41,067 nucleotides of DNA from an uncultured Coriobacteriia bacterium (lineage in GTDB: Bacteria; Actinomycetota; Coriobacteriia; Coriobacteriales; QAMH01): contig CATLBX010000003.1 in assembly GCA_949879855.1 (NCBI GenBank), positions 1 to 41,067 of the forward strand. The letters run 5' to 3'. This document shows positions 6,001 through 40,809 of the stretch, piece by piece. Below the pieces are notes generated by a model that was given only the letters and a program-made list of their open reading frames with translations, was not told the DNA's origin and searched no databases. How positions within the stretch are numbered: position 1 is the stretch's first letter; every line of letters begins with the position of its first letter. Made by a program: the position numbers and the translations under genes.

Positions 6001-9000
6001 GGCAACACCGCCCAGACGCTCTACGCCGTGTGGACGCCGGGCAACGCCGACTACTTCATCGACTACTACAAGGTGCGCGGCGATGGTACCGTCGAGCTCT
6101 ATGATTCCGTGATCCTGACGGGAATCACGGAGCGGACCGTGACCGTCACCGACGAGCAGAAGAACTACCGCATTCCCGAGGGTTACGCCTATGCCGCCGG
6201 CCATAGCGGCGAGGTCCTTTCGGGCGTCGTTACCGGCTGGTCGGGCAACAGGGCGGGCGACACCTCGGGCGCGCTGCACCTCAAGCTCTACTACGAGCCC
6301 ACCAACAGCACCGAGTACCGCGTCGTGCGCTGGGCCGCCACCGGTGACGGCAAGCTCGTGGCCGTCGACGCCAACGGCAACCTCAACTTCGACATCGCCC
6401 TCGAGCCCACTGCCGACGGCAGGCTCGTGCAGCTCGACGCCAAGGGCAATCCCGTTGCCTGGCTCAACGCCGACGGCACGCAGTACGTCATCACGTCCAC
6501 CGAGCATCGCCAGGTGTTTGATGCCGACGGCAATCCCGTCCGACAGCCCGTGATCGGCGAGGACGGCAACCCCGTCAAGGACGAGAGCGGAAACGTCGTC
6601 TACGAGGACGTCTACGAGGACGTTACCGTCTACAACGTCCAGTACCGTTATTGGTCGCTTCTGCCCAACGGCTCCGTCGTCCCGCTGGACGTGGCCGGCA
6701 TCGTCGACGCGACCTTCGGTGCGAAATTCCTCGATGGCAATGGGTGCATCACCTCCACGCTCGACGGCGTCACCTACCACCTGCCGGCGTTTGCCACGCC
6801 GTTCCTCATCGTGCACGCCAACGGCAAGGCCGACGCCATGGCCAATGCCGCCGCGACGACCGATGAGGTCACGGCCAATCCCAACGTCAACGCCCACGAT
6901 AACGTCGCGATCCAGGGCTTCGAGTTTCTGGTGCACGGTTCCACGACGCGTCTGGGCGATGCCGCCGAGACCAAGGTCACGACCGTGGCCCAGGGCTCCA
7001 TCGCCGCCGACGGCAGCCTCGTGCTCACGCTCTACTACTACGCGGTGCGCTCCATGCTCACCTTCGACCCGGGCACCGGCGCCGATGGCAGCACCGTGGG
7101 TAGCTGGTTCAATGGCGAGGACCTTTCGGCCGAGTACATGCCCAACGAGGTCGTGACGCTGCCCACCGGCACCAACCTGCGCCGTCCCGGCTACACGCTC
7201 GCCGGTTGGACCACCATCAAGAACTTCGTCGAGAACATGGGGACAGACCCCCGCTTCTCGATCGGCTCCGACGGCGACAGCCTCGTGGGCGTCGCCATGG
7301 GCCAGACGGCCATCGACCTGCAGGCCTGGCTCGCGACGCTCGGTGGCCAGTACTTCACCACCACCTTCACGATGCCGCGCGGTGCGACCACGCTGTATCC
7401 GGTGTGGCTGCCGCGCAACGACACCGTCTACACCGTCGAGTACTACAAGCATCGCGGCGATGACACCGTCGTGCTCGATGCCACCGTCCAGTACACGGGC
7501 ATGACCGATACGCTCGCCAAGGCCGGCCTCGTCTCCACGGGCATGGTCGACGGCGTCGCGGTCGATGACGTGAACCGCTACGGCACGGCCTTCTACAAGC
7601 TCGTCGACAAGGACGGCAATCCCGTCCTCACGGTGACCGACAAGAACGGCAAGGTCTGGACGGCGCTTCTCAGCTTCAACATCGCCGCCGACGGCTCCAC
7701 CGTCCTCAAGGTCATCTACGAGGCCCAGGAAATCGACTACACCGTCATCTGGTACAAGTTCACCGGTAACGAGGCCTTCGTCGAGGCCAAGACCGAGACG
7801 CGTCGCGGCCTGGTCGACGGCCCCGTGTCGGTCACCGATGCCGACCTCAAGGTCGCCTTCGACGGCTACAAGTACTATCCCGGCTTCTCGCTCAGGGGCC
7901 AGCGCGAGCTCCTCTCCGCCGACATCGCCTCCGACGGGTCCACCATCCTCAAGATCTTCTACGAGGCCCAGGACGTCACGCTCTTCCTCGACCTCGGCAG
8001 CTTCGGTGCCTGGTCGGGCCAGGAGCACGACGCCGACAAGTACAAGGCCGACCGTACGGTCAAGCTCTCCACGCTCGTCGAGCGCCCCGGCTATGACTTC
8101 ATCGGCTGGGCTTCCATCGCCGACGGCAAGGATACGAAGGGCAGCGCTTCGATCACGTTGGCCGATGCGATGCTCAAGGCGCTCAACGACGCCATCGCCG
8201 CCGGCACGACGACGCTCGATGCCAACGGCAACATTGTGTTCGCCTATGATGGCTCCGGCATCACCCTCATCCTCGCCAGCGGCGACGGCAACTACACGCT
8301 CGGCGCCGTCAACGTCACGCTCTATGCGGTGTGGAAGGCGCGCAACGATAGCGTCTACACCGTGCAGCACTACCGCGTCACCGGCGACGGCACGCTCAAG
8401 CCGGTCATCACCGATACCTACACGGGCATCACCGACGATCCCATCAACGTCAGCGCCGAGCATTACGACTACGTGGCGGGCACGGGCAACACGGCGGGTA
8501 ACGTCGCCGCGTTCCAGGGCTACGCCTACGCCCCCGGCTTCAGTAAGGTAATCGGGGGACAGACCCTCGCCGAAATCGCCGCGGGCACGATCCTCGCCGA
8601 CGGTTCCCTCGTGCTCAAGCTCTATTACGAGGCCATCGACCAGTCCATCACGCTCAACACCGGCGCGGGCGCGTGGAACGGTAGCGAGAACTTCTACAAC
8701 GCCACCTGGAACGCGGACAAGACGCAGGGCGTCGATAACACCGTCAAGACCGAGACGACGCTCACCGTTCCGAGCCGCGATTCCGCATCGCGTCCGGGCT
8801 ACACGCTCGTCGGATGGACGACGATTACCACCTACGACATCGTGGGCGGCAAGATCACCGCCGGCTCGCGTTACAACATCGCCGACGCGACCGGCCAGAC
8901 CGCGCGCGACGTGGTTGCGTGGCTCGAGAGCCTCAACGCCGCGCTCGCCGCCAATCCCATCACGGGGGGGACAGACCCCAACGCCGGACGCCAGTACTTC

Positions 9001-12000
9001 GCCTGCGGCACTTCCTTCGTGCTGCCGGCCGGTGGTGCGACGCTCATCGCCGTGTGGCAGGCCAACACCAACACGACCTACACCGTCGAGCACCATAAGC
9101 TCGTGATGGATGCCGCCGGCAACGTCGTCGACACGATCGTGCTCACCGAGAACCTCACCGGCATCACCGACGAGCAGGTCACGGGCATCGCCCAGACCTA
9201 CGCCGGCTACACCTTCGTGGCCAACGGGCAGACGGCCTACCCCGGCCAGGCCTACGTGACCTTCGCCCAGGGCACCATCGCCGGTAACGGCAGCCTCGTG
9301 CTCAAGCTCTACTACCGTGCCAACACCAACACGAAGTACACGGTCGAGCGCTGGATCGCGAGCGCCGACGGCAAGCAGCTCACCAAGGTCGACGAGAAGG
9401 TCCTGACGGGCACCACTGACACCTCCGTCACGCCCGGCTCCACCAATCCGCTGGGCTACACCCTCGATAACAGCTTCGTGCCCTCCACGATCTCGGGTAC
9501 GGGCGCGTGGCCCAACGCGGCCATTCCGACCGCCATCATCGCCGGTGACGGCACCACGAGGATCATCCAGTTCTACGTGCCCATCGACGTGCTCTACACC
9601 GTCGAGTTCTATCGCTACACCGGTGACGGCAAGGTCCTGCCCTTCAATGGCTTCGAGGCCAGCGCCGGCAAGAACTACGCCGAGTTCATCGCCGGAGGGT
9701 CTGTCCCCGTCTTCATCGCTGGCACCTCCACCGGTGCGGCCACCAACGTGATCAAGGGCTGGGGCAAGACCTCCTCGACGCTGTCGGTCGACCGCCCCGC
9801 CGGCATCAGCGCCTCGGCCGGATTCACCTACGCGCACCTCAACCTCTCGGCCGCCGAGAACGCCAACTTCATCGGCTACACCTATGACGAGGCCTTCGAG
9901 CAGGTCATCGGTGGCGTCACGTACAAGACGATCGCCCAGGGCGTCATCCTCGCCGACGGCAGCCTGGTGCTGAAGCTGTTCTACGTGCCCGAGACGCTCT
10001 CGGTCACCTACAACACCGGCAGCGCCTCCACGACGGTCACCTTCCAGAAGAACCACACGTCGGAGTCGACCTTCAAGCTGCCGCTCGAGACCACCGAAGG
10101 TCCGGTCGTCGACCGCGCCGGGTACACGCTGGTGGGCTGGACCGTCGCGAGTCACTACACCGGGTCGGGCACGGCCGAGAGCCCGTTTGCGCTGGCCGCC
10201 GCCAACGCCGCCGGCGCCAAGTCCATCAGCGCCGCCACCGGCTACGAGGCCCAGCGCCTCGCCGCCTGGCTCGCAACGTTGGGGACAGACCCCGACTTCG
10301 CGACGCATTGGGGACAGACCCTCACGCCCGATCTGGCCGCCCAGATGGGCAAGACCTACTACGCTCAGGGCTCGTCCTTCAAGATCGGCGTGCTGTCGAT
10401 GAACCTGTACGCGGTCTGGACGCCCACGGGCACCACCGAATACACGGCCGACATCTACAAGATCAAGGGCGACGGCACGATGGAACTCGTCGGCACCAAG
10501 ACCTACACCAACGGCGTTGCCGACGAGGACACCAACACGCTGGCCAAGCTGCCTGCCCAGAGCAGCGCGGACGTCTACGACAAGTCGCTCGACACCGAGT
10601 TCGGCCTGGCCGGCTATCGCTGGGTCGCCTCCACCGAGGATGGCCAGACCATCGACGCCGGCATGCCGGCCAACACCATCGCCCACGCCATCGTCAGCGC
10701 CAACGGCACCACCAAGCTCATCTTCATCTTCAGGGCCATCGAGGTCGAGTTCCAGGTCAAGCGCTACCGCGTCGACGGCGACGGCAACATCATCGAGGTC
10801 GATGTCGACGGCAATGACATCACCGACGATGCCACCGCCAAGCGCTTCACGCACAAGGGTCTCACCGACGCCAACGTCAACGTGACCGCCACGGCCGATG
10901 ACATGGCCGGCACCGATGCCAGTGGCTTCAAGGGCGGCTGGTACTACTTCATCGACAACCTCGACAACGTCGGCATGGTCACCGCTCTCGACGGCAGCCT
11001 CATCGCGGCCTTCACCTATGACGCGACCTACGCCGGCAACCTGTCCACGGGCGTCATCGCCGGTGACGGCAGCCTCGTCCTCAAGCTCTTCTACCTGCCC
11101 GGCAACTTCACCTTCGCGCTGGATCCCGGTGCCGGCACGTGGGGGACGGACCTCTTCGACGCGGCCCAGACCCAGGAGGGCACGCTCGAGACCACGACGA
11201 GCATCTGGTATCGCCACTACGGTGCCAGCACCACCATCACGCTTCCCACGGCCAGCGAGCTCACGCGCGAGGGCTACGTGCTCGCGGGCTGGATGGTCGG
11301 CAACGACGTCGAGAACGCGATGCGCTTCGACGTGCTCGGTCCGGTCATCACCTACACCATGCCGGTGGGCGAGGTCATGCTCAGGCCGATTTGGACCGGC
11401 CTCGAGACGGCCTACATGGTCTATCACGTCAAGGTGCGCGGCGACGGCACGCTCGAGTACTACATCGGCTCCAACAAGGTGGCCGCCGGCACCGGCGAGA
11501 TCGTCCGCGGCACCACCGGCCTGACCGCGCAGGTGACCGCCAACAGCTACGCCGGCTACGAGGCCATCGCCGACCTCGTGAGCTACACCTACGTTGGCGC
11601 CGACGGCATCAGCCACACGGTCACGACGGCCGCCAACGTGCTCATTGAGTGGGGCGGCGCCTTCGACGGTGTCAACAAGGGCAAGACCGCGGTCTACATC
11701 TACTACAAGCCGCTCGTCGTGAAGTACACGGTCGAGCACTGGGCCATCTCCGGCGACGGCACGCTCTACGCCATCGACGCGGACGGCAACCTCCTGCGCG
11801 ATGCCAACGGCAACCTCGTGGCGAGCCCCAACGCCGTGCGCGGCGAGCACGAGGGCTACTCTGACGCCCACATCTACGTCCTAGGGTCTGTCCCCGCTGA
11901 TGCGGTCGCGGGCACCTACACGACCTATAGCCCCTGGAGCATCGCCGGTTACGAGTACGTGCTCGGCACCATCGCGAGCATCAACGGCAAGGGTCCGTGG

Positions 12001-15000
12001 ACCGATGGCATGCTGACGAGCGGCATCTACGTCGCGCCCGACGGCACGCTCGTCCTCAAGCTCTACTACGTCGCCAAGAACCTGACGCTCACCTACGACC
12101 CGGGCGCCAACGGTTCCATCACCGCCGGTGGCAATCAGGGGACAGACCCCGTCGATGTCACGCATCGCGCCGACCACACCTTCAAGCTGCCCGCAGCCAC
12201 CGATGAGAAGCTCACCGTGAGCCGTCCGGGCTACGTGCTCAAGGGCTGGACGACGCTCATGAGCTACGGCGTCGCCGCCGATGGCAGCATCGTCTCGGCC
12301 GATACCGCCGGCGCCATCGTCAAGCTCATCGCCGACGCCAAGGGCGCCGAGGCCGAGGCCGTCATCGCCTGGCTCGAAAAGCTGGGGACAGACCCCCAGG
12401 GCCGTCCGTACTACTACCTCAACGGCGCGACCTTCCTCATGCCCACCGCCAACGAGACCCTGTACGCGGTCTGGACGCCGCGCTCCGACATCGTCTACAC
12501 CGTCGAGCACTGGCTCATCACCGGCGATGGCACCTTCTCGCCGCTGGACAAGAACGGCAACGTCATCCGCGACGCCAACGGCGCGCTCGTCACCGGCACG
12601 CCCAACACGAGCGCCGACGCCTCCGACACCACCAACGCGGCCTACCGCGTCACCTACAACAACGGCAAGTCCGACGTCGTCTTCGACCTCGACGCCATCG
12701 GCGGCTACACCCGCACGGTCGCCGGCTACACCTACCTGCTCAACAACGCGAGCTTCACCATCGCGGGCGCGACGGGCACCACCTACGCCGTGAAGACGAT
12801 CAGCGCCGACGGCAAGACGGTCTTCTACCTGTTCTACCGTGCCAACGAGAACACGATCCGCTTCGAGGTCGGTTCGCTCGGCACCATCGACGGCGGCACG
12901 CTCGACGCGACCGAGAACGTCAACTTCATCACGCAGAAGCACTACACCGACGACAGCTTCGACCTGGCAGATGTTCCCACCCCGACGCGTCCCGGCTACG
13001 ACTTCCTCGGCTGGACCATCGCCGACAAGAAGGGGACAGACCCCATCAACGACGCGATGGGCTACACCGCCCAGCAGATCGTCACCTGGCTCGAGGCCCA
13101 GAACGCGGGCAAGGGGACGTACCTCAAGCTTTTCTTCAAGTCGGGCACGAACTTCACCTACCTCACGCCGACCGGCGACATCATCCTGCGCGCCGTGTGG
13201 ACGCCGCAGCTCGTCGACTACACGATCAATCGCTGGAAGGTCACCGGTAACGGCGACAAGGTTGAGCTCGACTCCGTCACCTACAAGGGCTACGCCGACA
13301 CCGAGGTCCGCTTCGATGCCGCCAAGACCGAGTACAAGGACGGCATCACTTACCTCAAGGTCGACGTGCCCACGGGCTATCGCTTCCTGGCCGCGGGTAC
13401 GAGCGAGATCTACACCGGCACCAACAAGCTGACCCAGTCGTTCAGGACCGACGCCTACGGCAACGTCCTTCCCAACGGCACGGCGAAGTTCACGCTCTGG
13501 TACCTGCCGAAGACCTTCAAGCTCGAGCTCGAGCTCGGCACCTTGGGTACCTGGAACGACACCACGACGGGCACCAACACCGGCACGCTGAAGACCGTCG
13601 AGTATGACGCGGAGTCCGTCCACGAGATGCTCGGCTACCTCTCCGCGAGCCGTCCGGGCTATACCCTCGTTGGTTGGTCGTCCAGCGACTTCAGCGCGCT
13701 CAAGGGCGAGGCGTCGCAGGCCAAGTGGCTCGAACTCGCCGCCTCGGTTGTCGGCGCGGACTGGGTGCGCGTCACCACGGTCCTGAAGTCCGATGCCACG
13801 GGCACGTCGCTGACCGGCTACACCTACGCCTACATCGCCAACAGCTACGAGAACATCAAGTACATGTACACGATGGGTCTCGCGGGCGTGAAGTTCTACG
13901 CCGTGTGGCGCGCCAACGACGACACGGTCTACTACGTCGACCACGTCCGCTGGGAGGGCAACAGCACCGCCAAGACCACCATCACCGAAGAGTTCCGCGG
14001 CATGACCGACAAGAACTACACGGCCACCCCGTTCAACACCATGCTCGCCGATCCGCGCTTCAACACCAGCTTCACCGGCTACGGCTACAACGGCACGGAT
14101 CCCAAGCCCAGCACGGCCACGAAGGCGGTCACCGGCGACGGCACCATGCGCATCACGCTCAACTACTTCGCCCAGAAGCTCAACCTCACGCTCGAGTCCA
14201 CCGGCGGCACCTGGTCGACGACCTGGAATCCCGAGCACCTGACCGAGTCGAGCTTCAACCTGCCGACCAACGCCGACATCAAGCGCCCGGGCTACACGCT
14301 CGTGGGCTGGTCGACCACCAATCCCGACGATGGCCTGACTGGCAACATCAAGGGCCTCGCCTCGCAGGTCAAGGCCGGCCAGCTCGCGGCGATCACCGGC
14401 AACGACACCGCCAACGGCGGCGCCAACTGGATCACGGTCGCCACGACTTCCGACGGCAAGACCTACGTCTTCGTCACGCCGGGCTACAAGATGCCAACGA
14501 GGGGACAGACCCTGTACGCCGTCTGGTACGCCAACAACGACACGAAGTACGCGGTCGAGCGCTGGGTCGTCTCCGGTGACGGCGTCCGCTACGCCCTCAA
14601 GGCCGACGGCACGCTCGAGCGCGACGCCAACGGCCTGCTCGTGACCAGTGACAAGGCCGACAGCGCTCATTCGCTGAGCTACGTGGGCACCACCGACGAG
14701 GAGGCGTGGGCCGACGCCATCGACGGCTCCATCGTCTACCGCACGAACGACACCCTGCTCACCATCACCGGCTACGCCTATGCCGCCGATGGCGAGACGA
14801 TCGTCGCCAAGGACGGCGTCGTGACGATTGGGGGACAGACCCTCAAGACCGACGCCCGCGCGACCATCACCGGCGACGGCAAGATGACCCTCGTGCTCTA
14901 CTTCAAGCCGCTGCAGTTCACGCTCGACTTCTACATCGGCGCGACGAGCACGCCCAACCTGAGCGCCACGCCGGCGCGGGCCACGCTCTATGCCGACCAG

Positions 15001-18000
15001 ACCTACACGCTGCCCACCTCGACGGTGACGCGTAGCGGCTACACGCTCAAGGGCTGGACGAACAGCCAGTACGCGAGCGGTGTCGATGCGGCCACGATCA
15101 TCTCCGACCTCAAGGGCATCAAGTCCCAGAACGCCTACACGGCCGTGAGCGCCAGCACGGGCCGCGACGCCGTGACCGGCAAGGTCTTCACCGCCGTGAC
15201 AAGCGGGGGACAGACCCTCTACATCATGCCGACGGGCAACGTGACGCTCTACGCCACCTGGCGCGCCAACGACGACACGCAGTACCTCGTCGAGCGCTGG
15301 GTCGTCTCCGGCGATGGCACCCGCTATGCGGTCACCTCCGACGGCAAGCTCATCCGCGATACCAACGGCAAGCTCGTGACCAGCTCGACTGCCGATGCGA
15401 GCCACGTCGTCAAGCACGTGGGCATCACCGACGAGGAGGCCTGGGCCGACGCGAACGTGGCCGGAACGAGCTACCGCAACGACGATTCCGCGCTCACCTT
15501 CGCCGGCTACGCCTTCGCGGCCAACGGCGAGACGGTCATCGCCAAGGACGGCGCGACCGCCTTCACCACCATCGCCCGCAAGGTCATCACCGGCGACGGC
15601 AAGATGGTCCTCGTGCTGTACTACAAGCCCAAGCTCAACACCATCACCTTCAACTTCGGCAGCGGCACGAGCACCGGCGCGCCCGCGACGATGCAGGTCT
15701 ACACCGACCAGACCGTCGAGCTGTCCGCCGATGCCGAGCGCACGGGCTACGACCTGGTCGGCTGGTCCAACGTCTCGACCTACAGCGTGAAGGTCGACGG
15801 CGCCACCACGGCCACGACCGTCAACGTCGGCACCTCCAAGGGCCTGGCCTCCCAGGCCGCCGCCGACGCGGCCAAGGCCAATACCAAGCGCACCTCCGAC
15901 AAGGGCGCCGCCTTCACCGCCGTGACAATCGGGGGACAGACCCTCTACATCATGCCGACCGACGCGAGCATCACGCTCTACGCCACCTGGCGCGCCAAGT
16001 CCGACACCGTCTTCTACGTCGACCGCTACAAGGTCACCGGTGACGGCGTGGTCGTGCCCATCGACGCGAACGGCAAGGACCTCGCGGCCCTCGTCTCGCT
16101 GCGCTTCACCGGCGTCACCGACGAGACCGCCACCGCCGGCGCCAAGAGCGGCCCGAAGCCCTGGAACACCGCCGCCTACGGCACCCTGGCCGGCTACTAC
16201 ACGATCGCCAACGGCACGAGCGACCGCGTCATGCTCAAGGACGGCAGCGGCTACGTCGTCATGACCACCATCAGCGCCGGCGTCATCGCCGGTGACGGCA
16301 GTCTGCACCTCGTCGTCTACTACTTCCCGCTGGCAGACCGCGTCCTCGACCTCGACGTCGGCGACGGCACCTGGGAGCCCGGCAAGGAATCCCAGTACAG
16401 CGGCAACAAGCACGCCACCGAGTCGAGCTTCACGCTGCCCACCAACGCCGACGTCAAGCGCCCGGGCTACACGCTCGTGGGCTGGGCCATCGACAAGAAC
16501 GGCCTCATGGCCGCCGGAAAGGACACCGCCAAGGGCGCGGCGTCGCAGAAGTCCTACCTCACGCTCGCCGCCGGCAAGACCGGTTACATCGCCGATGGCG
16601 GCGCCGAGTGGATCGCCGTGATTTCCGGCTACGATGCGTCGACCTTCACCTACACCTTCATCGGCGCCGATGACGTCATCTACGTCATGCCCACGAACGC
16701 CAAGGTCATGCTGCGTGCCGTGTGGCGCGCCAACGACAACACGCCGTATTACGTGTCGCGTTGGGGCATCAACGGCGATGGCATCGCCTTCCCGTTCAAG
16801 CAGGACGGCACGGTCGACATGAACGGCGACCAGATCGTGATTCATGACGATCCTGCGTGGATCAAGGCCAACTACGTCGTCCACTACGGCATCACCGACG
16901 AGATTGCCTGGGCCGATGCGAACGTCGACGGCGTCTCCTATCGCAACGCCGACAACATCGAGGTGAACGGCTACAGGTACCTCCCGACCGACGATCCCGC
17001 GTTCGACTCGATCGGCGGCAGCCTCAACACGATGGCCCGCGCGGTCATCAAGGCCGATGGCAGCATGGTGCTCATGCTCTACTACAACGCCAAGGACAAC
17101 ATCACCTACTCCGTCTACCACGTGCGCGTCACCGGTGACGGCACGGTCAAGAACCTCGTCAAGCAGGAGTTCATGAAGAAGAACAACTCCTACGTCACCG
17201 TCGACAACCTCGATTACAACGGCCTCGACGACAGCCGCTTCCTCGGCTACGAGTACGTCGACTCCATCGTCATCAACGGCGTCACCTACTACTCGCATAT
17301 TGCCGGTAACGTCTACGACGGCCTCATCCTGTATCGCTACTACAAGGCCATCTACGACGAGGGTGACAAGGGCATCCACCTCGAGCTCAATCCCGGAATG
17401 GGCATCTGGGTGAACACCGGCGAGTCCACGCCGTCGATGATTCCCGGCACCTCGAACAGCTCGCACGACACCTTCGCCGCCGAGACCACGATCACGCTTC
17501 CGGGCGCCGACCAGCTCTATCGTCCCGGCTACGAGTTTGTCGGATGGTCCGACATGCCCGACGGTGCGGATGCGAAGGGCAACTACTCCGTGATCACGTC
17601 CGACCACCTGATGAGCGTCGATCCCGAGACGGGCCAGTACACCGATGTGCTGCGCGCCCTCATCATGAGCCTGCTCTCGCAGCGCATGGAGGATGCCGAG
17701 AACAGGGCGATCGAGGTCGATGGCGACAACCCGACCTACAAGTTCCTCGACCATCTCTACATCGCGCCCGACGGCAAGTTCCTCGTCCCGACCAAGACCA
17801 TCAGGCTCCACGCGATCTGGCGCGCCCGCACCGACACGAAGTACACGGTCAGCCATTGGTGGGTCGACCAGTACGGCGTGGCGCACGAGATCGAGGACAG
17901 CAGGCTCAACCTCGAGGGCATGACCGACGAGAACGTGTACGGCTCCAAGCTCGACGACAACCATGAGGCCGTCGCCGGTTACACGTACGTGAAGGAATAC

Positions 18001-19778: not shown

Positions 19779-19938
19779 GGGGGACAGACCCTCGGCAGGC
19801 GGGGGACAGACCCCCGCTTCGTCCGCCGGTGAAAGAATGGGGACAGACCCCCGATTGCCAGCTCCCATATCCGCCGGTGAAAGAATGGGGACAGACCCCC
19901 GCTTCGTCCGCCGGTGAAAGAATGGGGACAGACCCCCC
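19779..19938 (+). repeat. Cluster of 5 mini-hairpin elements immediately after the giant gene stop codon
   Basis: Cores are at 19779, 19801, 19839, 19887 and 19924. The last three share the composite unit ccgccggtgaaagaatGGGGACAGACCCCCgcttcg, with 48- and 37-nt spacing. Confidence 0.9.
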
Positions 19939-20043: not shown

Positions 20044-20697
20044 ATGAATAACGAGCCAATGTACAACGCGTTCATCAAGAACCGCGAGCAGGTGGACAAT
20101 CAGTCGTCAAAACCCAGGAACAAACGCAAGGGCGATCGCGTCAAGGCGGACGATCTTCCCGACTTCGATTTCGACGTCGAAGAGCCGGGTGAAGATGTCG
20201 CGAGTGGTTTTGCCCAGGGCCCGGTAGTCGGTGTCGACAGGACGCTTGGAAGCTATCCGGAGTTTCTCAGGCACGACGTCGAAGACGACGCCTTCGATGC
20301 TTGTGACGAGCCGCTTACCAGCGAGCCGTTCGAATTCGAGGACGGGTGCGTCAGCCTGCCTCACCCCGACGTCTTCAACTCGTATCCTCCCGAGGTACAG
20401 CGTAAGATCATGGAATGGACCGATCGTGACATCCGTGCCCGTCGTGATGACGAATCGCGCCGCCAAGACGCGATATTGCGAGCCAACATCGCACGCGACA
20501 AAACGAAGATGGCCGTTCCCGTCGTCATCGTCATCCTGTGCATCGTCTGTGCGGCGATTACCGGCCTGTATACGAAAAACGCGCTCTTCGTGATCGCGTT
20601 TCTCGTCGTTGCGCTCGTCGTGATCATCGCGCTTTTCGTGAGCCGCTACGAGCAAAGCAGGCGCGGTCACTTCCACTCTCAATACCCAAAGCCATAG
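20044..20697 (+). CDS. Hypothetical membrane protein, DUF2335-like
   Basis: The 217-aa ORF has an acidic N-terminal half. It then carries YPPEVQRKIMEWTDRDIRARRDDESRRQ followed by two hydrophobic helices, which resembles DUF2335 from memory. A strong terminator follows. Confidence 0.55.
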   Translation: MNNEPMYNAFIKNREQVDNQSSKPRNKRKGDRVKADDLPDFDFDVEEPGEDVASGFAQGPVVGVDRTLGSYPEFLRHDVEDDAFDACDEPLTSEPFEFEDGCVSLPHPDVFNSYPPEVQRKIMEWTDRDIRARRDDESRRQDAILRANIARDKTKMAVPVVIVILCIVCAAITGLYTKNALFVIAFLVVALVVIIALFVSRYEQSRRGHFHSQYPKP

Positions 20698-20769: not shown

Positions 20770-20829
20770 GGGGGGGTCTGTCCCCCTATTGCCACCTGCA
20801 GCCGAGTTCTTGATCGGGGGTCTGTCCCC
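20770..20829 (-). repeat. Two reverse-orientation mini-hairpin elements upstream of the RAYT-like gene
   Basis: GGGGGGGTCTGTCCCCC lies at 20770-20786 and GGGGGTCTGTCCCC at 20816-20829. Their reverse complements read ggtggcaataGGGGGACAGACCCCC and ggtgctaatgaGGGGACAGACCCCC. Confidence 0.9.
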
Positions 20830-20998
20830 TCATTAGCACCGAGGCAGTGGAGGCATGGTCGTATCCGCATTTACTCGGAAATCGCTCCGTTTCGACTTCG
20901 ATCGATGTCCGAGATTGCTCAGATTCCCGGGGTGGTTTGCTCGGATGTTTCCGATGTAGCCTATTTCCGCAGAAGGCCTGACGGAAAGGAGGTGCAGT

Positions 20999-21796
20999 GT
21001 GCCGCGCCAGCCACGCAGACAATCGTCAACCGGGTATTACCACATCACGAACCGTGGCGTTGGCAAAGCGCGGGTCTTTAACGACGGCAACGATCACTCG
21101 TTCTTCATAGATTGCCTGCGGCTTGCACAGCGGGTCTGTCGCTTCAAGGTTCTCGCATATTGCATAATGACCACGCATTTCCATATCGTCATCAAGTGCG
21201 AGGGCGCCGTTCCAACATCCCTTTTCCAGAGCATAGGAGCACGGTTTTCGGCCTATTACCACAAGAGGCACAAATGCTCTGGGCAAATATTCCAGGGCCG
21301 CTTTCGCAGCGAGGCAATCGAGACGGACAGACACCTTCTCTCTGCGATTCGCTATGTATGGCGCAATCCCGTCAAGGCCCACCTCTGTTCCTGCTTGGCC
21401 GCCTATCCGTGGAGTAGCTACAATTTTCTGGGCAAGTCGGGTGGCTTAATCGACGACGAGCTTCTTTGCAGCTTCATGAGCGCCGATGAGTGGAGGGCCT
21501 TCGCGTTGCAGGAAGTGGACGACCGCCATCTCGAGCCTTTTTCCCTGCGACTGTCGGACAGTTCCGCTCGGAAGCTGGTTCGTGAAGGGTGCCGGCAGTT
21601 CGGCGGTGTGCCAAGGGATGCTCTCGAGAAACCAGAGTGCCCTCCTGCACTTGCCGTGTGCCTGGATGCGGGGATGACCGTGGCGCAAATTGCCAGAATC
21701 CTGAACATCACCGCAACCGGTATGTATCGCGCATTGCGGAAATGGGGCCGGCAGGTTCCGAGGGCATGCACCCTCGAGGCGTCGAGCAGTCCGTAA
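20999..21796 (+). mobile_element. Y1/HUH tyrosine transposase of the IS200-like superfamily, RAYT-like (REP-associated), with a C-terminal HTH region
   Basis: The start is GTG 20999, preceded by GGAAAGGAGG. The HUH motif is H60-F-H62 (TTHFHIVI). The block GQIFQGRFRS is present, and the catalytic-Tyr motif is IR-Y119-VWRNPVKA...YPWSSY. The C-terminal region MTVAQIARILNITATGMYRALRKW looks like an HTH. No TnpB/IS605 orfB partner is present. Confidence 0.8.
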
Positions 21797-23417: not shown

Positions 23418-24248
23418 ATGTCCGTCCAAACTCCAAACGAGAAGTACGACGCCCTGGTCATCCGCCTTCGTTCCCTCAAGAGCGTGGCGGTTGCCTTTTC
23501 GGGCGGCGTTGACTCCGCGTTGCTGCTGCATGCCGCGCACGAGGCGCTTGGCGATAGGACGGTTGCGATTACGGCGCGATCGCGCCTTTTTCCGCAACGC
23601 GAACACGACGAAGCCGTTGCGTTTTGCAGTGACCGCGACATCCCGCACGTCATCGTCGACACGCACGAGCTCGAAGACGAGGCGTTCCGGCAAAATCCGC
23701 CCAATCGCTGCTATCTCTGCAAAACGGGGCTACTGCGCGTCATCGTCGATGTTGCGACCGGGCGCGGGGCCGAACATGTCGTCGAGGGGTCGAACACTGA
23801 CGACGAGAGCGACTACCGTCCAGGTGCCCAGGCGATACTCGAGCAGGGGGTGATGAGCCCGCTCAAAGACGCCGGTCTCTCAAAGCGCGAGATACGCGAT
23901 TTGTCGCGAGAGAAGGGCCTTCCCACCTGGAACAAGCAGTCGTTCGCGTGTCTTGCGTCGCGTTTTGCGTTCGGCGAGGTCATTAGCGAGGAGCGCCTCG
24001 ACATGATCGACGCAGCGGAGCAGGTTCTTCTCGAAAGGGGAATTCGGCAAGTTCGCGTGCGCTTCCATGGGCCAATTGCGCGCATCGAGGTGCAGCCGGA
24101 CGATTTCGCGCGTCTTGTCGATCCGGATGTTCGAGAGGATGTCACCCGAAACATCAGGGCGCTTGGATTCAAGTACGTGACGCTTGACCTTGAAGGCTAC
24201 CAGACAGGCAGCATGAACATGACAATTGGGGGACAGACCCCCAATTAA
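23418..24248 (+). CDS. PP-loop ATP-utilising enzyme, LarE-like (sulfur transferase family)
   Basis: The SGGVDS PP-loop is present (AVAFSGGVDSALLL), as are RCYLCK and the LarE-type cysteine motif SFACLASRF. The last 8 codons (NMTIGGQTPN) are encoded by a copy of the repeat element. Confidence 0.75.
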   Translation: MSVQTPNEKYDALVIRLRSLKSVAVAFSGGVDSALLLHAAHEALGDRTVAITARSRLFPQREHDEAVAFCSDRDIPHVIVDTHELEDEAFRQNPPNRCYLCKTGLLRVIVDVATGRGAEHVVEGSNTDDESDYRPGAQAILEQGVMSPLKDAGLSKREIRDLSREKGLPTWNKQSFACLASRFAFGEVISEERLDMIDAAEQVLLERGIRQVRVRFHGPIARIEVQPDDFARLVDPDVREDVTRNIRALGFKYVTLDLEGYQTGSMNMTIGGQTPN

Positions 24249-24903: not shown

Positions 24904-25028
24904 GGGGGGACAGACCCCCCTCTTCGTGCCGCCCCCCATCCCGCGCACCTCCAAGCGCCTGCTCGACTTGGAGGCCGAGTAATCGCGCACTGCGATTCTT
25001 CCTGCGTAACAATATGGGGACAGACCCC
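24904..25028 (+). repeat. Two forward mini-hairpin elements
   Basis: ggtgacaaaGGGGGGACAGACCCCCC lies at 24904-24920 and has 6-bp arms. cgtaacaatatGGGGACAGACCCC lies at 25016-25028. Confidence 0.9.
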
Positions 25029-26521: not shown

Positions 26522-26672
26522 CGGGGGACAGACCCTTCCACATCACCGCAGGCGAAAACCGGGGGACAGACCCCTAATTCCGGTTCCGGTGCTCCATTCG
26601 TGACAGCCGGGGGACAGACCCCTCCATGAACCGATTCCATGAACCGACCCCGCAAACCGGGGGACAGACCCC
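26522..26672 (+). repeat. Cluster of 4 forward mini-hairpin elements between convergent genes
   Basis: Cores are at 26522, 26560, 26609 and 26659. Two copies share the 3' flank CTCCATG(A/G)A. Confidence 0.9.
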
Positions 26673-27684: not shown

Positions 27685-27747
27685 GGGTCTGTCCCCGGAT
27701 TACCAACATCATCCCATGGCGAAGGTCGTGACGAAGGGTCTGTCCCC
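27685..27747 (-). repeat. Two reverse-orientation mini-hairpin elements in the divergent intergenic region
   Basis: GGGTCTGTCCCC occurs at 27685-27696 and at 27736-27747. Confidence 0.9.
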
Positions 27748-27778: not shown

Positions 27779-29050
27779 GTGATTCGAAACGTCGATGGTG
27801 ATTCCGGCGCAAGCGAAGGTGCGCGGAGGTACCAGAATCCGGTGCTCGTGGGCATCGTCTTGCTCGTATCCGGAATATCGGTGGCGATGATCCAGTACAA
27901 GGTCCCCACCATCATGACGAATCTCATGGGCATCTTCTCGATGGATGCGGCGACGGCCTCGTGGCTCATGTCGATTTTCACGCTCGTGAGCATCTTCGTC
28001 GCGTTGCCCGCGGGTGCCCTTGCACAGCGTTTCGGAGCCAGGCGGATGCTCGTCGTCGCATGCGGCATCGCCATCCTCGGTTCGCTCGTCGGCCTTGTCT
28101 CCGAAACGAGCCCGATGCTCATCGTTTCGCGGGCGATCGAAGGCGCCGCGCTTACCATCCTCACGACATGCGGACCGATTATCGTCCAGCAGAACGTGAG
28201 TCCCGAGAAGGTCGGCACCTCGATGGGCATCTGGGGCATCTGGGGATGTCTCGGGTCCACCGTCGCGGCCGTTCTCACGCCGACCGTTTTCGGCATGTGG
28301 GGATTTGACGGTCTCTGGATCGCGTTTGCCGTGGTCAGCGGCGTTGCGGCTGTCCTCGTCCTGGTCTTTATCCGCAAACCCCCGTCCGCCCCTGCAGCGC
28401 CCGAGGGTCTGTCCCCCAATCGCCATGCGCCCCAGGGGTCTGTCCCCGCAATGTCAGATGGGGCAACGATTGTCGAGAAGCCGCGCTATCGCGACATGTT
28501 CTCCAGGGACATGTTCCTGTTCTTCGGGGCCTTCGTCGTCTACAACATCTGCATGCTCGCGATTCTGGCGTTCGTCCCCACGATTCTGCAGATGCAGGGC
28601 TTCGATCCGACGCTCTCGGGCATCATCAGCACGGCGCCCATGCTGCTCTCGATCATATCATCACCGCTCTTCGGAGTTGTCTCCGACAAGATCGGCCGCA
28701 ACAAGCCACTGCTGATCATCGCCATGCTCGTCATGGGCCCCTGCACGTTTTTGCTCTACACGCAGACTGGGCCGTTGCTCTGGGTGGGCGTCTTTGCGAT
28801 GGGGCTGCTCGGCATGGGCGGCATCGGTCAGTATCTCTCGGGATTCACGAAGCTGCTGCCGAGCCCCGACCTCGCGTCGGTGGGCATGGGAGTGCTTGTC
28901 ACGTTCCAAGGCGTCGGTCAGTTCCTCGGCACGTTTTTCGTGCAGATGCTCCTGGGGCCGCAGCTGACCGAATGGTGGTTTGCCGGCATGGTGCTCATGT
29001 TCCTCGGCTTCGTCGGCACGGCGCTCATCGCCCTGTGCAGGCTACGGTGA
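27779..29050 (+). CDS. MFS transporter
   Basis: I prefer the GTG at 27779, which lies 5 nt after AGGAGGA. The ATG at 27716 has no RBS and would translate through a repeat copy. The protein has 12 predicted hydrophobic segments and a central loop. The stop TGA 29048-29050 lies inside the GGTGACAA extension of the next repeat copy. Confidence 0.8.
   Translation: MIRNVDGDSGASEGARRYQNPVLVGIVLLVSGISVAMIQYKVPTIMTNLMGIFSMDAATASWLMSIFTLVSIFVALPAGALAQRFGARRMLVVACGIAILGSLVGLVSETSPMLIVSRAIEGAALTILTTCGPIIVQQNVSPEKVGTSMGIWGIWGCLGSTVAAVLTPTVFGMWGFDGLWIAFAVVSGVAAVLVLVFIRKPPSAPAAPEGLSPNRHAPQGSVPAMSDGATIVEKPRYRDMFSRDMFLFFGAFVVYNICMLAILAFVPTILQMQGFDPTLSGIISTAPMLLSIISSPLFGVVSDKIGRNKPLLIIAMLVMGPCTFLLYTQTGPLLWVGVFAMGLLGMGGIGQYLSGFTKLLPSPDLASVGMGVLVTFQGVGQFLGTFFVQMLLGPQLTEWWFAGMVLMFLGFVGTALIALCRLR
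28405..28447 (-). repeat. Two reverse-orientation mini-hairpin elements in frame within the MFS central loop
   Basis: GGGTCTGTCCCCC lies at 28405-28417 and GGGGTCTGTCCCC at 28435-28447. They encode ..PEGLSPNRHAPQGSVPAMS.. between the two six-helix halves. Confidence 0.85.
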
Positions 29051-29056: not shown

Positions 29057-29190
29057 GGGGACAGACCCCTGGCTGGCCGGACTGACAATGAGGGGACAGA
29101 CCCTCAGTTGGTTAGGCTCCTAGTTAACGGCGCGTGATAAGAAGGGGACAGACCCCCGACTAAACGGACTGGCAATGAGGGGACAGACCC
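29057..29190 (+). repeat. Cluster of 4 forward mini-hairpin elements
   Basis: Cores are at 29057, 29092, 29144 and 29179, with the extensions ggtgacaacga-, actgacaatga-, cgtgataagaa- and actggcaatga-. Confidence 0.9.
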
Positions 29191-31017: not shown

Positions 31018-31035
31018 GGGGTCTGTCCCCTTATT
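31013..31035 (-). repeat. Reverse-orientation element extended to a perfect 9-bp hairpin overlapping the luxR stop codon
   Basis: The hairpin is AATAAGGGG-TCTGT-CCCCTTATT, and the TAA stop is at 31015-31017. It may act as a terminator or RNA-stabilising hairpin, although no clear U-run follows. Confidence 0.6.
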
Positions 31036-31058: not shown

Positions 31059-31267
31059 TGACAATCGGGGGACAGACCCTCACGCGTCATCTCTTCGCAT
31101 CATGCTGACAGCCGAGGGACAGACCCCGTCATGCCGTCCCTCGCATCCCGGTTGACAATCGGGGGACAGACCCCCACGCGTCATCTCTTCGCATCATGCT
31201 GACAATCGGGGGACAGACCCCGTCGTGTCGTCCCTCGCATCCCGGTTGACAATCGGGGGACAGACCC
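31059..31267 (+). repeat. Higher-order tandem repeat (about 94-nt unit, about 2.3 copies), each unit containing two mini-hairpin elements
   Basis: Cores are at 31067, 31116, 31161, 31208 and 31255. The unit is ccggTTGACAATCGGGGGACAGACCCyCACGCGTCATCTCTTCGCATCATGCTGACAryCGrGGGACAGACCCCGTCrTGyCGTCCCTCGCATC. Confidence 0.9.
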
Positions 31268-33237: not shown

Positions 33238-33450
33238 ATGTGTTTCAGACCCGCAAGTTTCGAGTCCGAAGGTGACAACCCCTATTTCGTTCCCGGCGAA
33301 GAAGATGCTGGCGTACCTGGCGCTCCCGGAGCACCGGGCGCACCTGGAGCCCCTGGCGCTCCCGGCGCACCTGTAGCCCCCGGCGCACCTGCCGCACCGG
33401 GCGCACCTGCTGCTCCCGGCGCCCCGTCCGCACCGGGCCAGCCGTCCTAA
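33238..33450 (+). CDS. Candidate 70-aa micro-protein with a collagen-like (G/x)AP triplet repeat
   Basis: ATG 33238 lies 5-6 nt after AAAGGAGAGG. The sequence is MCFRPASFESEGDNPYFVPGEEDAGVP(GAP)6 VAP GAP AAP GAP AAP GAP SAP GQPS. The identical aa triplets use varied synonymous codons. The gene lies 108 nt upstream of the molybdoenzyme gene. Confidence 0.45.
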   Translation: MCFRPASFESEGDNPYFVPGEEDAGVPGAPGAPGAPGAPGAPGAPVAPGAPAAPGAPAAPGAPSAPGQPS

Positions 33451-33558
33451 AGCCAGGGCAAGGTGCCGGTTCGCGCCGGCGGGAGTGTCCTTGCCAGACG
33501 ACTGGATCACGAACGCAAAGTGCAATGCAGGTTGAGAGAGAAGAGGAAAGGAAAGAGC

Positions 33559-35898: not shown

Positions 35899-36246
35899 AT
35901 GACGGCCTACGGTCTGCTTATCGATTACGAGTTCTGCACGGGCTGCCAGTCTTGCGAGGTCGCGTGCAAGGAGATTCACAACATCCCCGTGGGGCAGTGG
36001 GGCATCCGCGTGCTTGACGATGGTCCCTGGGAGTGCTCGGACGGCAAGTTCAACTGGAACAAGATTCCGACCCCGACGCGCCTGTGCGACCTGTGCGTCG
36101 AGCGCACGGACAAGGGCCAGCAGCCCTTCTGCGTGCATCACTGCCTGGCCGGCGTCATGCAGTGGGGCACGGTCGAGGACCTTGCCAAGGAGCTCGAGGA
36201 GAAGCCCAACCAGGTGCTTTTCGTGCCCAAGCCCTACCAGTACTAG
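35899..36246 (+). CDS. 4Fe-4S ferredoxin-type small subunit
   Basis: The ATG abuts the upstream stop (TAGATG). The protein carries CTGCQSCEVAC plus CDLC...CVHHC cysteine clusters. It is 115 aa long. Confidence 0.8.
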   Translation: MTAYGLLIDYEFCTGCQSCEVACKEIHNIPVGQWGIRVLDDGPWECSDGKFNWNKIPTPTRLCDLCVERTDKGQQPFCVHHCLAGVMQWGTVEDLAKELEEKPNQVLFVPKPYQY

Positions 36247-36287: not shown

Positions 36288-36412
36288 GGGGGACAGACCC
36301 TCACGCATCACGAACGACGCGGTTGGCAAGAAGGGGACAGACCCTTTCACGAGAAAGCGGGGGACAGACCCCTTCGCGCCAACCGCAGGTGAGAAAGAGG
36401 GGACAGACCCCC
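36288..36412 (+). repeat. Cluster of 4 forward mini-hairpin elements
   Basis: Cores are at 36288, 36333, 36359 and 36399. Confidence 0.9.
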
Positions 36413-37484: not shown

Positions 37485-37570
37485 GGGGGACGGACCCTCG
37501 ATCACCGTCGGTGACAAAGAGGGGACAGACCCCCATCGATCGCCGCCGGTGACAAGCAGGGGACAGACCC
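37485..37570 (+). repeat. One degenerate and two intact forward mini-hairpin elements
   Basis: GGGGGACGGACCC at 37485 is degenerate. ggtgacaaagaGGGGACAGACCCCC is at 37521 and ccgccggtgacaagcaGGGGACAGACCC is at 37559. Confidence 0.85.
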
Positions 37571-37660
37571 TCGGCTTGGACCCTTGATTTGCAATTTGGT
37601 TCGTACGGCGCGGCCACGAGGAAAGGCCGGGCCGTTAAGAAGGAGAAGGAGAGTGAAGCA

Positions 37661-40027: not shown

Positions 40028-40029
40028 AT

Positions 40030-40521
40030 ATGGCAACCTACGGACTTCTTATCGATTACGAGTACTGCACGAACTGCGGTTCCTGCCAGGTCTCCTGCAA
40101 GGAGGAGCATGGCTACCCGGTAGGCAAGACGGGCATCGCCGTCCATGCCGACGGCCCGTGGTACATCGACGATGACAACATCAACTTCAACTACTTCCCC
40201 CTGCCGACAGACCTGTGCGACCTGTGCAAGGACCGCACCGAGCGTGGCCGCGAGCCCATTTGCGTGCATCACTGCCTCGCCAACATCCTGTACTACGGCA
40301 CGGTCGAGGAGCTCTCCAAGAAGCTCGAGGAGAAGCCGAAGCAGATGCTCATCGTCCCGCAGTACATGCCGCGCGTGGCCAGGGGCGAGTTCGTCCACCA
40401 GGAGAACGCGACGGACCTGCACAAGGCCGCTGCCATGGACGTCAAGGGCACGGGCGCCTCGACCTTCGGTGCGCACCGCGCTGACGCCAAGGTCGGCGAG
40501 TACGAGGAGGATGCCGTCTAG
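40030..40521 (+). CDS. 4Fe-4S ferredoxin-type small subunit, paralog of 35899-36246 with a C-terminal extension
   Basis: It carries CTNCGSCQVSC plus CDLC...CVHHC. At 163 aa it is longer than the 115-aa paralog. Confidence 0.8.
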   Translation: MATYGLLIDYEYCTNCGSCQVSCKEEHGYPVGKTGIAVHADGPWYIDDDNINFNYFPLPTDLCDLCKDRTERGREPICVHHCLANILYYGTVEELSKKLEEKPKQMLIVPQYMPRVARGEFVHQENATDLHKAAAMDVKGTGASTFGAHRADAKVGEYEEDAV

Positions 40522-40597: not shown

Positions 40598-40620
40598 GTG
40601 ACAAGCGGGGGACAGACCCT
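40598..40620 (+). repeat. Forward mini-hairpin element (extended form)
   Basis: GTGACAAGCGGGGGACAGACCCT is identical over 23 nt to the in-CDS copy at 15196-15218. Confidence 0.9.
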
Positions 40621-40630
40621 TGGCCACAGT

Positions 40631-40736: not shown

Positions 40737-40758
40737 GCAAAAGCCAAGGTGAAAAAGA

Positions 40759-40809
40759 GGGGACAGACCCTTGCGTGTCATTGCTGGTGAGAAGAAGGGG
40801 ACAGACCCC
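40759..40809 (+). repeat. Two forward mini-hairpin elements
   Basis: ggtgaaaaagaGGGGACAGACCC is at 40759 and ggtgagaagaaGGGGACAGACCCC is at 40797. Confidence 0.9.

Follow-up and report, generated by a model that had tools for sequence, protein, structure and literature searches.

A dense, dispersed short repeat in a gut Coriobacteriia genome and its probable link to a RAYT-like tyrosine transposase

The stretch of DNA analysed here, hereafter the window, comprises 41,067 nucleotides of an uncultured Coriobacteriia bacterium (contig CATLBX010000003.1, assembly GCA_949879855.1, positions 1 to 41,067). It carries numerous copies of a short dispersed element, composed of a 5' tag and an invariant core, which probably derives from and is maintained by a RAYT-like enzyme of the TIRYT or TnpA_REP subclass 2.1 type encoded at 20999-21796 of the same window. 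RAYTs are the tyrosine transposases associated with repetitive extragenic palindromes (REPs). The evidence consists of the abundance of the element, the presence and conservation of the gene, a link between motif and enzyme across the whole transposase family, the tracking of the repeat by lineage, the turnover of its arrays and the constraint on its core. An initial annotation, made from the letters of the window, had taken the host to be actinobacterial, and this was correct because the window is 95-97% identical to a metagenome-assembled genome (MAG) of an uncultured Coriobacteriia bacterium (CAOKAE01).

The 10-mer GGGACAGACC is found 56 times in the window, 47 times on the plus and nine times on the minus strand, between positions 7240 and 40807, versus an expected count of 0.14 from dinucleotide-preserving shuffles. 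The initial annotation had arrived at exactly this number, against an expectation of well below one. As a 12-mer, the core GGGGACAGACCC is present in 55 perfect copies and two copies with one mismatch, at a density of about 1.3 per kb. The shared 5' extension that had been proposed was recovered by a position matrix of all window copies, which reads T (70%), G (90%), A or G, C (60%), A (90%), A (70%) and N3, followed by GGGG. The base 3' of CCC is C (60%) or T (40%), and farther 3' there is no consensus. The unit in the window can be written as a (G)TGACAA-N3 tag followed by the core GGGGACAGACCC(Y), and the core motif as a search pattern for Coriobacteriia genomes as GGGGWCAGACCC. A collection scan with the query GACAANNNGGGGACAGACCC returned many matches in a few MAGs of uncultured gut Coriobacteriia. 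The density is about 0.8 per kb in the other sampled tiles of the sister genome, densities outside the window being taken from motif-selected 8-kb tiles and gene-anchored loci, and by extrapolation from the sampled density a genome would hold a few thousand copies.

Several other identities for the repeat were considered and set aside. An extended hairpin with covariation was rejected, as the pairing of the flanks does not exceed that obtained after swapping 3' flanks among copies. As a promoter, the TTGACA within the tag has no -10 partner, and a promoter scan gave fewer sites than shuffles. A CRISPR array is at odds with the irregular spacing (22-52 nt), the recurrence of spacers within arrays and the lack of cas genes among the annotated genes. 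No Rfam family reached its gathering threshold anywhere in the window.

The transposase gene and a conserved box upstream of it are located as follows:

20999..21796, plus strand: gene for a RAYT-like Y1/HUH tyrosine transposase of 265 aa, TIRYT / TnpA_REP subclass 2.1 type, recognised through profiles, alignment and synteny
20920..20947, plus strand: conserved box CAGATTCCCGGGGTGGTTTGCTCGGATG, with its GGGG beginning 70 nt before the RAYT gene

The product (MPRQPRRQSSTGYYHITNRG...HFHIV...RYVWRNP) matches the Pfam family Y1_Tnp at 25.5 bits (cut-off 23). A profile of 16 homologues matches TnpArep of PDB entry 4er8 (E. coli TnpA_REP) with an E value of 2.2e-6; a PDB search with the single transposase sequence gave no match. 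In the alignment of these 16 homologues the HUH histidine H62 and the presumed catalytic Y119 are invariant and the other HUH histidine, H60, is nearly so, and the transposase looks catalytically intact. At the C-terminus there is a weak, sub-threshold match to the helix-turn-helix (HTH) family HTH_7 (20.8 bits vs 23.8, residues 222-249). This C-terminal block can be aligned across homologues, some of which carry PF08299, PF13384 or PF12802. Positions 212-248 of the profile, in the same HTH region, are also matched by PDB 8vd6_A, a chain named 'CAP REPEAT' (E 2e-7).

Orthologues at 94, 78, 71, 69, 60, 52, 51 and 47% identity all adjoin moeA. The gene order of giant surface protein, protein of about 200 aa, RAYT and moeA is kept at 94, 78, 71, 60, 52 and 47% identity, and the 51% orthologue lies at a contig end where RAYT-moeA is all that is visible. 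One RAYT locus was seen in each sampled genome. The RAYT diverges faster than its neighbours, at 78% identity versus 91-93% for moeA and tig, and at 52% versus 82% (moeA) in the locus designated L163 (sampled loci are cited by such L numbers). Such behaviour matches that described for domesticated RAYTs (PMC5581495).

The box at -70 (CAGATTCYCGGGGTGGTTTGCTCGGATG) is conserved in the window and in L161, L057, L034 and L163, and is weaker yet recognisable in L165. Its distance from the gene falls within the 63-70 nt typical of the inverted repeats of distant homologues, and it resembles their GGGGACGGTTCT type, so that it is probably a remnant of the left-end repeat of the RAYT gene itself, or else a regulatory site. 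The downstream partner of the box is degenerate and conserved in close relatives only. The copies of the repeat nearest to the gene are two on the minus strand ending 170 nt upstream and three on the plus strand beyond moeA, all outward-facing, and L163 has plus-strand copies on both sides of the gene. Little weight should be given to copies near the window RAYT gene, because nearly every intergenic gap holds a copy.

Two further features of this locus were observed. The gene at 20044-20697 (plus strand) encodes a protein of 217 aa that has a membrane segment at its C-terminus and whose one profile match, to DUF4337, is weak; a gene of about 200-217 aa stands between the giant gene and the RAYT in six relatives, with similarity detectable to 45% identity. 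Upstream of moeA, positions 21855-21879 (TTTGGTACCCTGTCGAATAA) are near-invariant in all six loci with the orthologous genes, the most divergent having 74% MoeA identity. This element has no Rfam match and is probably a moeA promoter or operator.

The core motif is a signature of the enzyme family and not of this genome alone. Searching for inverted repeats around each gene at 54 distant homologue loci (27-40% identity; Clostridia, Actinomycetota, Proteobacteria, Planctomycetota and others), we found that the longest gene-flanking inverted repeat carries GGG(G)[AT]C in 37 of the 54. Examples are GGGGACGGTTCT, GTGACAAGGGGACGGGG, TGTCAAGGGGACGG, TTGGGGACAGTCCCCAA and GGGGTCAGACCCC, and the usual distance of the repeats from the gene is 63-70 nt on the upstream and 10-45 nt on the downstream side. 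The exact 10-mer was not found in the flanks of these distant homologues. Collinsella homologues (31% identity) are accompanied by inward-facing CACTCATTGGGGACAGAC pairs within about 180 nt, a canonical arrangement seen in these homologues only, and the 8.7-kb loci contain no further copy of the motif. Di Nocera et al. (2013) described TIRYT genes whose flanking inverted repeats share GGGGWSAS and form dispersed families that are 'moderately abundant' in some species (PMC3733652). Quentin et al. (2018) equated TIRYTs with TnpA_REP subclass 2.1, which has a C-terminal HTH and near whose genes they found no REP-like sequences (PMC6006769). The extra C-terminal HTH of this group is of the Bac_DnaA_C, HTH_23 or HTH_28 type. 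Both GGGGACAG and GGGGTCAG match GGGGWSAS. The initial annotation knew of no description of the repeat, and this needs to be qualified, since the motif class GGGGWSAS is published for TIRYT repeats (PMC3733652; PMC6006769). A description of this particular Coriobacteriia family was not found in the literature; searching by the 10-mer sequence yielded unrelated primers only, and no paper was found that ties Eggerthellaceae to REPs.

Related words were seen in other phyla. The combination GACAA-N3-GGGGACAGACCC also occurs in unrelated Proteobacteria MAGs (L055, L071, L072 and L016 from the Pseudomonadota MAG JAZJYP01; L053 from Burkholderiales; L013 and L044 from Betaproteobacteria). These copies form long perfect palindromes or inverted pairs resembling REPINs, often at contig ends, and no TIRYT gene is present in the 8-kb pieces that contain them. 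In a Treponema sp. MAG (GC 43%), nine tandem 42-bp units ending in CCTGATCAATGGGGACAGACCTC are found at L050:131-469, with two more copies 4 kb off; they seem to be a spirochaetal, low-GC relative of this motif class.

The repeat was followed through relatives of the window, the comparators being CAOKAE010000001.1 (close, 95-97%) and CABRZR01, CAAEKX01 and CABURF01 (intermediate, about 82%). For the window and five loci bearing RAYT orthologues, the identity of the RAYT, the number of cores, the length of sequence and the tag are:

Window: RAYT 100%; 55 GGGGACAGACCC in 41.1 kb; tag TGACAA-N3
L161: RAYT 78%; 32 GGGGACAGACCC in 20.8 kb; tag GGCAAT
L167: RAYT 71%; 33 GGGGACAGACCC in 20.8 kb; tag TGGCAA
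L172: RAYT 60%; 23 GGGGACAGACCC in 14.5 kb; tag ACGAT
L163: RAYT 52%; 17 GGGGTCAGACCC and no A-variant in 17.8 kb; tag CACG
L173: RAYT 47%; 9 GGGGACAGACCC in 12.3 kb; tag ACAAA

Five orthologue-bearing lineages have GGGGACAGACCC at 0.4-1.6 per kb. Core variant and tag are uniform within a genome and change by lineage, and the same gaps, after moeA and after tig, hold units in every lineage, each time bearing the tag of that lineage. In some L161 copies the 3' arm ATTGCC pairs with the tag, giving 12-bp stems. At one orthologous site of the giant gene the window reads GGGACAGAC (GTDP) and L163 reads GGGTCAGAC (GSDP), a change of Thr to Ser. Perfect cores outnumber cores with one mismatch by 55:2, 32:0, 33:1 and 23:1 in four genomes.

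Comparison with the 95-97% relative over 28 kb placed all 11 indels of at least 5 nt within 40 nt of a copy; 10% of aligned positions are that near. Whole array units are gained or lost between these near-identical genomes, and in this respect the strain comparison suggested by the initial annotation did reveal polymorphic copies. At greater distance the picture is one of retention: 12 of the 16 cores within the giant gene are unchanged in 81-83% relatives, versus a chance of about 15% for an intact 10-mer. Third-position identity in this gene is 0.69-0.74, and the bases flanking the core are below average at 0.44-0.62. Conserved, syntenic copies had been named in advance as an argument against a dispersing element, and they are found in part, most copies in the giant gene having the same position in the 81-83% relative, yet array copy number varies among the 95-97% genomes. 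The copies are thus unstable at the level of the array and strongly preserved at the core. Because positions in the giant gene are conserved in the 81-83% relative, many copies are old and are being actively preserved, and are not the product of fresh dispersal.

The 16 copies before 19776 all fall within a single intact giant open reading frame (ORF; 22-19776, plus strand), in two sense frames (GTDP or GQTL) and on the antisense strand (GSVP). This repetitive ORF of at least 6584 aa is truncated by the window start, and its end, a hydrophobic segment and then RRRRQ, resembles a cell-surface anchor; the ORF called for its orthologue on ERZ15609935 NODE_1 has 15,059 aa. Four more copies are inside other called ORFs, at 24230 (the end of a PP-loop gene) and at 27737, 28406 and 28437 (a major facilitator superfamily (MFS) transporter gene), although the copy at 27737 is where the MFS ORF is called to begin and may precede the true start. 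The initial annotation had not stated that these two sets of copies are inside ORFs, and had overlooked the transposase gene. Mapping to genes, which it had recommended, leaves 36 of the 56 copies outside called ORFs and 20 (36%) inside, and the repeat is therefore not strictly extragenic. As had been noted, tig, moeA and the molybdoenzyme genes are free of copies, and past 19776 there are clusters of two to five within intergenic gaps. These are mostly same-orientation tandem clusters, with spacings of 22-52 nt. Inverted doublets of the REPIN kind are not the rule, a convergent + + - - arrangement being found in a minority of gaps. Along the window, the copies and arrays are:

7239..7250, plus strand: copy in giant ORF, reading GTDP; an 82% relative has GGCACCGATG, length unchanged
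8555..8566, plus strand: copy in giant ORF, reading GQTL; core identical in 81-83% relatives, flanks differ
8967..8978, plus strand: copy in giant ORF, reading GTDP; one relative encodes GTDP by other codons (GGC ACC GAT CCC)
9697..9708, minus strand: antisense copy in giant ORF, reading GSVP; absent in relatives through substitutions only
10281..10321, plus strand: copy pair 29 nt apart in giant ORF, LGTDPDFATHWGQTL; both kept in 81% relatives
11884..11895, minus strand: antisense copy in giant ORF, reading GSVP; kept in relatives
12138..12149, plus strand: copy in giant ORF with 5' tag GGTGGCAAT; kept in relatives
12384..12395, plus strand: copy in giant ORF; kept in relatives
13032..13043, plus strand: copy in giant ORF with 5' tag GACAAGAAG; kept in relatives
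14501..14512, plus strand: copy in giant ORF; kept in relatives
14831..14842, plus strand: copy in giant ORF with 5' tag GTGACGATT; tag and GGGGA missing in 81% relatives owing to an in-frame indel of net 15 nt
15206..15217, plus strand: copy in giant ORF, FTAVTSGGQTLYIMPT; kept in relatives
15932..15943, plus strand: copy in giant ORF, FTAVTIGGQTLYIMPT, at the paralogous protein-repeat position matching the 15207 copy; kept in relatives
18636..18680, plus strand: copy pair in giant ORF, EGTDPAWSTGNLGTDP; the first aligns to the L163 GGGTCAGAC copy (GSDP)
19780..19935, plus strand: five-copy tandem array directly past the giant-ORF stop; copy number differs in the 97% relative
20774..20829, minus strand: copy pair past the intrinsic terminator at 20716-20738, the nearer one stopping 170 nt short of the RAYT start; likewise in L161 and L057
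23229..23297, plus strand: three-copy array past the moeA terminator; 17-nt indel versus the 95% relative
24229..24240, plus strand: single copy with 9-bp palindromic stem over the last PP-loop ATPase codons; -9.5 kcal/mol, z -4.4
24906..25027, plus strand: two single copies in the gap between the DUF2510 gene and tig; both in relatives at about 80%
26524..26671, plus strand: four-copy array past the tig terminator, from motif count and terminator scan
27685..27747, minus strand: copy pair between the FKBP gene (minus) and the MFS gene (plus); 27737 overlaps the called MFS 5' end
28405..28447, minus strand: two antisense copies in the central loop of the MFS ORF, EGLSPNRHAPQGSVP; the L161 MFS gene also holds two antisense copies
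29057..29190, plus strand: four-copy array directly past the MFS stop; mostly without syntenic alignment in the relative
31019..31030, minus strand: single palindromic copy (9-bp stem, from folding), 2 nt past the stop of a LuxR-family gene
31068..31267, plus strand: five-copy array with a 47/94-nt period and one copy AGGG; unit number differs in the relative
36289..36410, plus strand: four-copy array past the first Fe-S subunit gene, from motif count
37486..37570, plus strand: three-copy array, the first copy degenerate (GGGGACGGACCC), from motif count
40608..40619, plus strand: single copy past the second Fe-S subunit gene, from motif count
40759..40808, plus strand: copy pair; in the 95% relative one is absent and the other broken by deletions

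Orientation is best explained by gene direction, not by replication direction alone. In co-directional intergenic regions 55 copies lie along the direction of the genes and 10 against it, and inside ORFs 30 copies are sense and seven antisense. In the convergent gaps of L040 and L059 the orientation switches mid-gap, and some co-directional gaps show the + + - - pattern. Three arrays start 20-35 nt past strong intrinsic terminators, and others start within a few bases of a stop codon. Read in antisense, the unit presents a 5-bp GC stem followed by TYTTTGTCAC (GGGGGTCTGTCCCC-TYTTTGTCAC) and was scored as terminator-like, for example at 37534-37521, 36412-36399 and 19900-19887, which may explain why antisense copies are scarce within transcription units. 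No sense copy in the giant ORF lies in the frame that would read the TGA of the tag as a stop. This frame argument is not decisive, since many ORF copies have GGCAA in place of TGACAA and the frame in question also needs an AGA codon.

If it acts as IS200/IS605 TnpA and E. coli TnpA_REP do, the enzyme would recognise the GGGGWSAS-type core, and probably the tag too, on single-stranded DNA exposed at replication or transcription, and would then cut and rejoin beside the core, thereby seeding new copies. Arrays would expand and shrink via local duplication or slippage among neighbouring units, and intragenic copies would persist only in tolerant loops and stop-free frames. From the near-perfect core it follows that the sites are now needed by the host, by the enzyme or by both. 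Since the core is constrained, co-option for a host function is likely, and a structural or transcript-end role downstream of genes is plausible. A stronger version, which we consider less likely than not, is that a domesticated Y1/HUH enzyme actively keeps a genome-wide word identical at a few thousand sites, so that the repeat is no longer a selfish passenger. It is raised because of the 55:2 ratio of cores, the 12 of 16 intact copies versus about 15% expected, the switch of the family from A to T in L163 and the lineage-specific tags. If true, this would be a homogenising or site-maintaining activity undescribed for RAYTs, and the enzyme would be the first of subclass 2.1 (TIRYT) to drive a REP-like population, one denser than any known to us.

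A number of observations count against an origin from and maintenance by the enzyme at 20999-21796. Its product scores 74.3 bits with NCBIfam NF047646 (REP-associated tyrosine transposase), just below the cut-off of 80, over profile positions 3-146 of 146. The core of the -70 box reads GGGGTGGTTTGC and not GGGGACAGACCC, and the window RAYT gene has no canonical inward-facing flanking repeats. We know of no cleavage, binding or transposition test for any subclass 2.1 enzyme. The hairpin of G and C arms around an ACAGA loop, proposed by the initial annotation, drew little support: a typical copy with its GGGG/CCCC stem folds at -3.6 kcal/mol as DNA (z +0.17), no better than shuffles, and 9-bp stems are found in few window copies only (24230, 31020). 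Most window copies are not palindromic. At least eight of nine flank positions are paired in 2% of window copies versus 19% in L161 and 14% in L172, and most window copies lack the imperfect palindrome of 20-40 nt with a stable stem-loop by which REPs are defined. The REP and RAYT logic that had been suggested for the element stands as to a dispersed family, a conserved 5' tag beside an invariant core and a RAYT-type Y1 transposase, and fails as to the palindrome and strict extragenic placement (20 of 56 copies in ORFs). Three copies in the giant ORF (7240, 8968 and 9698) differ from relatives by substitutions alone, one of them synonymous (GTDP), and another by a net 15-nt indel. The substitution-only differences, unpolarised as to gain or loss with two clades only, look like point mutation and not like insertion. 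Finally, core conservation (55:2, and 12 of 16 at 81-83%) exceeds that of a purely selfish, decaying repeat.

Among other explanations the most serious, though still improbable, is a host site of regulatory or structural kind, such as a transcript 3' end, an insulator or a site bound by a nucleoid or RNA-binding protein, for which the transposase link would be historical. Arrays that begin at stop codons or directly past intrinsic terminators, the orientation bias (55:10 between co-directional genes, 30:7 in ORFs), the mid-gap flip in the convergent gaps of L040 and L059, the terminator-like antisense GGGGGTCTGTCCCC-TYTTTGTCAC and the strong core constraint would all suit such a site. However, three arrays stand past strong terminators and are therefore mostly outside the transcript, ORF-internal copies and array-length differences among near-identical strains misfit a tuned regulatory site, and no Rfam family is matched. 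Because co-option of REPs is known, a regulatory role is compatible with derivation from the RAYT-like enzyme and does not exclude it. A DNA uptake sequence (DUS) or uptake signal sequence (USS), with biased uptake and recombination accumulating the word independently of the transposase, is very improbable. At about 1.3 per kb the word is within the densities of Neisseria DUS and Haemophilus USS, copies are found in genes, in several frames and on both strands, and perfect copies far outnumber near-misses. The three giant-ORF copies that differ by substitutions only, one synonymous, and a flanking consensus weaker than the core, as in USS, fit as well. Yet same-orientation tandem arrays of two to five with duplicated spacers are no feature of USS or DUS, and orientation tracks gene direction instead of being even as it is for those sequences. 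Moreover, in dozens of unrelated taxa a Y1 transposase family has this core as its terminal motif, among them low-copy Collinsella cases in which it is confined to the ends of the gene, and there is no competence gene among the annotated genes of the window.

A word polar with respect to replication or recombination, like Chi or KOPS, would owe its strand bias to replication direction. The bias itself (47:9 in the window, and 71:17 over eleven 8-kb blocks, ten of which are tiles of a 318-kb contig of the sister genome) and a GC skew that is negative throughout the window agree with it. We consider it very unlikely, for orientation flips with gene direction, both within the single gaps of L040 and L059 and in the minus-strand gene block of L036, neither Chi nor KOPS resembles a tandemly arrayed 12-mer that carries a 7-nt tag, and the link to the Y1 transposase family is left unexplained. 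Hardly any credence can be given to a protein-repeat artefact, in which the word merely encodes a recurring peptide (GTDP, GQTL) of the giant protein. There are indeed 16 copies in the repetitive 6584-aa ORF, and those at 15207 and 15933 occupy equivalent positions of paralogous protein repeats. But the word persists at synonymous sites although third-position identity is otherwise 0.69-0.74, GGG and ACA are expected to be rare codons in a GC-rich host, and the idea is refuted by the use of two sense frames and the antisense strand and by the 36 of 56 copies outside called ORFs.

Other features of the window were recorded. A 9-nt tandem repeat (CTGGCGCAC) of about 11 units, with periods of 18 and 36 also apparent, is located at 33308-33438, just upstream of the first molybdopterin oxidoreductase gene, and could code for an Ala/Pro/Gly-rich stretch or be non-coding. 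Positions 33463-36246 and 37589-40521 hold paralogous operons, each with a molybdopterin oxidoreductase of about 810 aa and a small Fe-S subunit, at about 72-78% DNA identity, and a TorD-like chaperone gene lies between them. Neither catalytic subunit reaches any NCBIfam equivalog cut-off.

The populations of REPINs are described as clouds of related sequences, and the present core, at 55:2, is far more uniform. HIP1 of cyanobacteria is likewise a hyper-abundant short word in coding and non-coding DNA that is kept at orthologous sites; it differs in being an 8-bp perfect palindrome with no associated Y1 transposase and no tandem arrays. The DUS of Neisseria and the USS of Pasteurellaceae are similar in density, in-gene copies in several frames, the dominance of perfect copies and a weaker flank consensus, and differ from the present repeat in its tandem same-orientation arrays, gene-direction bias and transposase-family link.

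The closest known system is that of the TIRYTs and TIRtrons, which share with the window a Y1/HUH core with a C-terminal HTH (weak here), GGGGWSAS repeats, as fitted by GGGGACAG, and flanking repeats that in some species have spread as singles, dimers and clusters (PMC3733652). In contrast to the density of about 1.3 per kb found here, published families are 'moderately abundant' and TIRYTs are described as 'less productive' than RAYTs. The host, a member of the Coriobacteriia, is outside the phyla that Di Nocera et al. list for GTAG repeats, and 'Actinobacteria' is in the text of neither paper (PMC3733652, PMC6006769). A further difference is that the flanks of the window gene are without canonical inward-facing copies, and that most copies are half-sites in same-orientation arrays. 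The REP/BIME and REPIN systems with their RAYTs (E. coli TnpA_REP, 4ER8; Pseudomonas REPINs; PMC3116915, PMC5581495) are alike in an apparently single-copy, vertically inherited and position-stable gene, and in a short repeat that is specific to the genome and bears a conserved 5' tag, situated mostly downstream of genes in clusters that vary by strain. REP and TIR families are downstream of genes, clustered and sometimes intragenic (PMC3733652), a placement that the present repeat shares. Unlike REPs and REPINs, it does not carry the GTAG (or CGTC) tetranucleotide, its tag being (G)TGACAA-N3 and lineage-dependent; it mostly has no 20-40 nt palindrome, its inverted doublets are in the minority and 36% of its copies are intragenic. 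Rickettsia palindromic elements and intragenic REPs (PMC3733652) are a precedent for short in-frame repeats tolerated in functional genes, where they add loop residues. The present unit is much shorter (about 22 nt) than the Rickettsia elements, and most orthologous intragenic cores are perfect at 81-83% identity.

RAYT- and TIRYT-associated repeats, the motif GGGGWSAS, intragenic REPs, clusters and placement downstream of genes are thus already known. What is new is the host phylum, the density, a preponderance of half-sites that are not palindromic and stand in same-orientation arrays, the many copies conserved within genes and the clean switch of variant between lineages. The finding would extend RAYT-type repeat systems to Actinomycetota, namely the gut Coriobacteriia, and the TIRYT or subclass 2.1 branch, held to be poorly productive and not associated with REPs, would be able to build a very dense repeat population. 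The A- and T-variant cores and the differing tags of sister lineages offer a natural specificity-swap series for site reading. Because indels between near-identical strains stem mainly from the arrays, these could be used as strain-typing markers, and they probably contribute to breaks in the assembly of MAGs from these gut bacteria. The conserved intragenic copies pose a general question for REPs, that of their benefit to the host.

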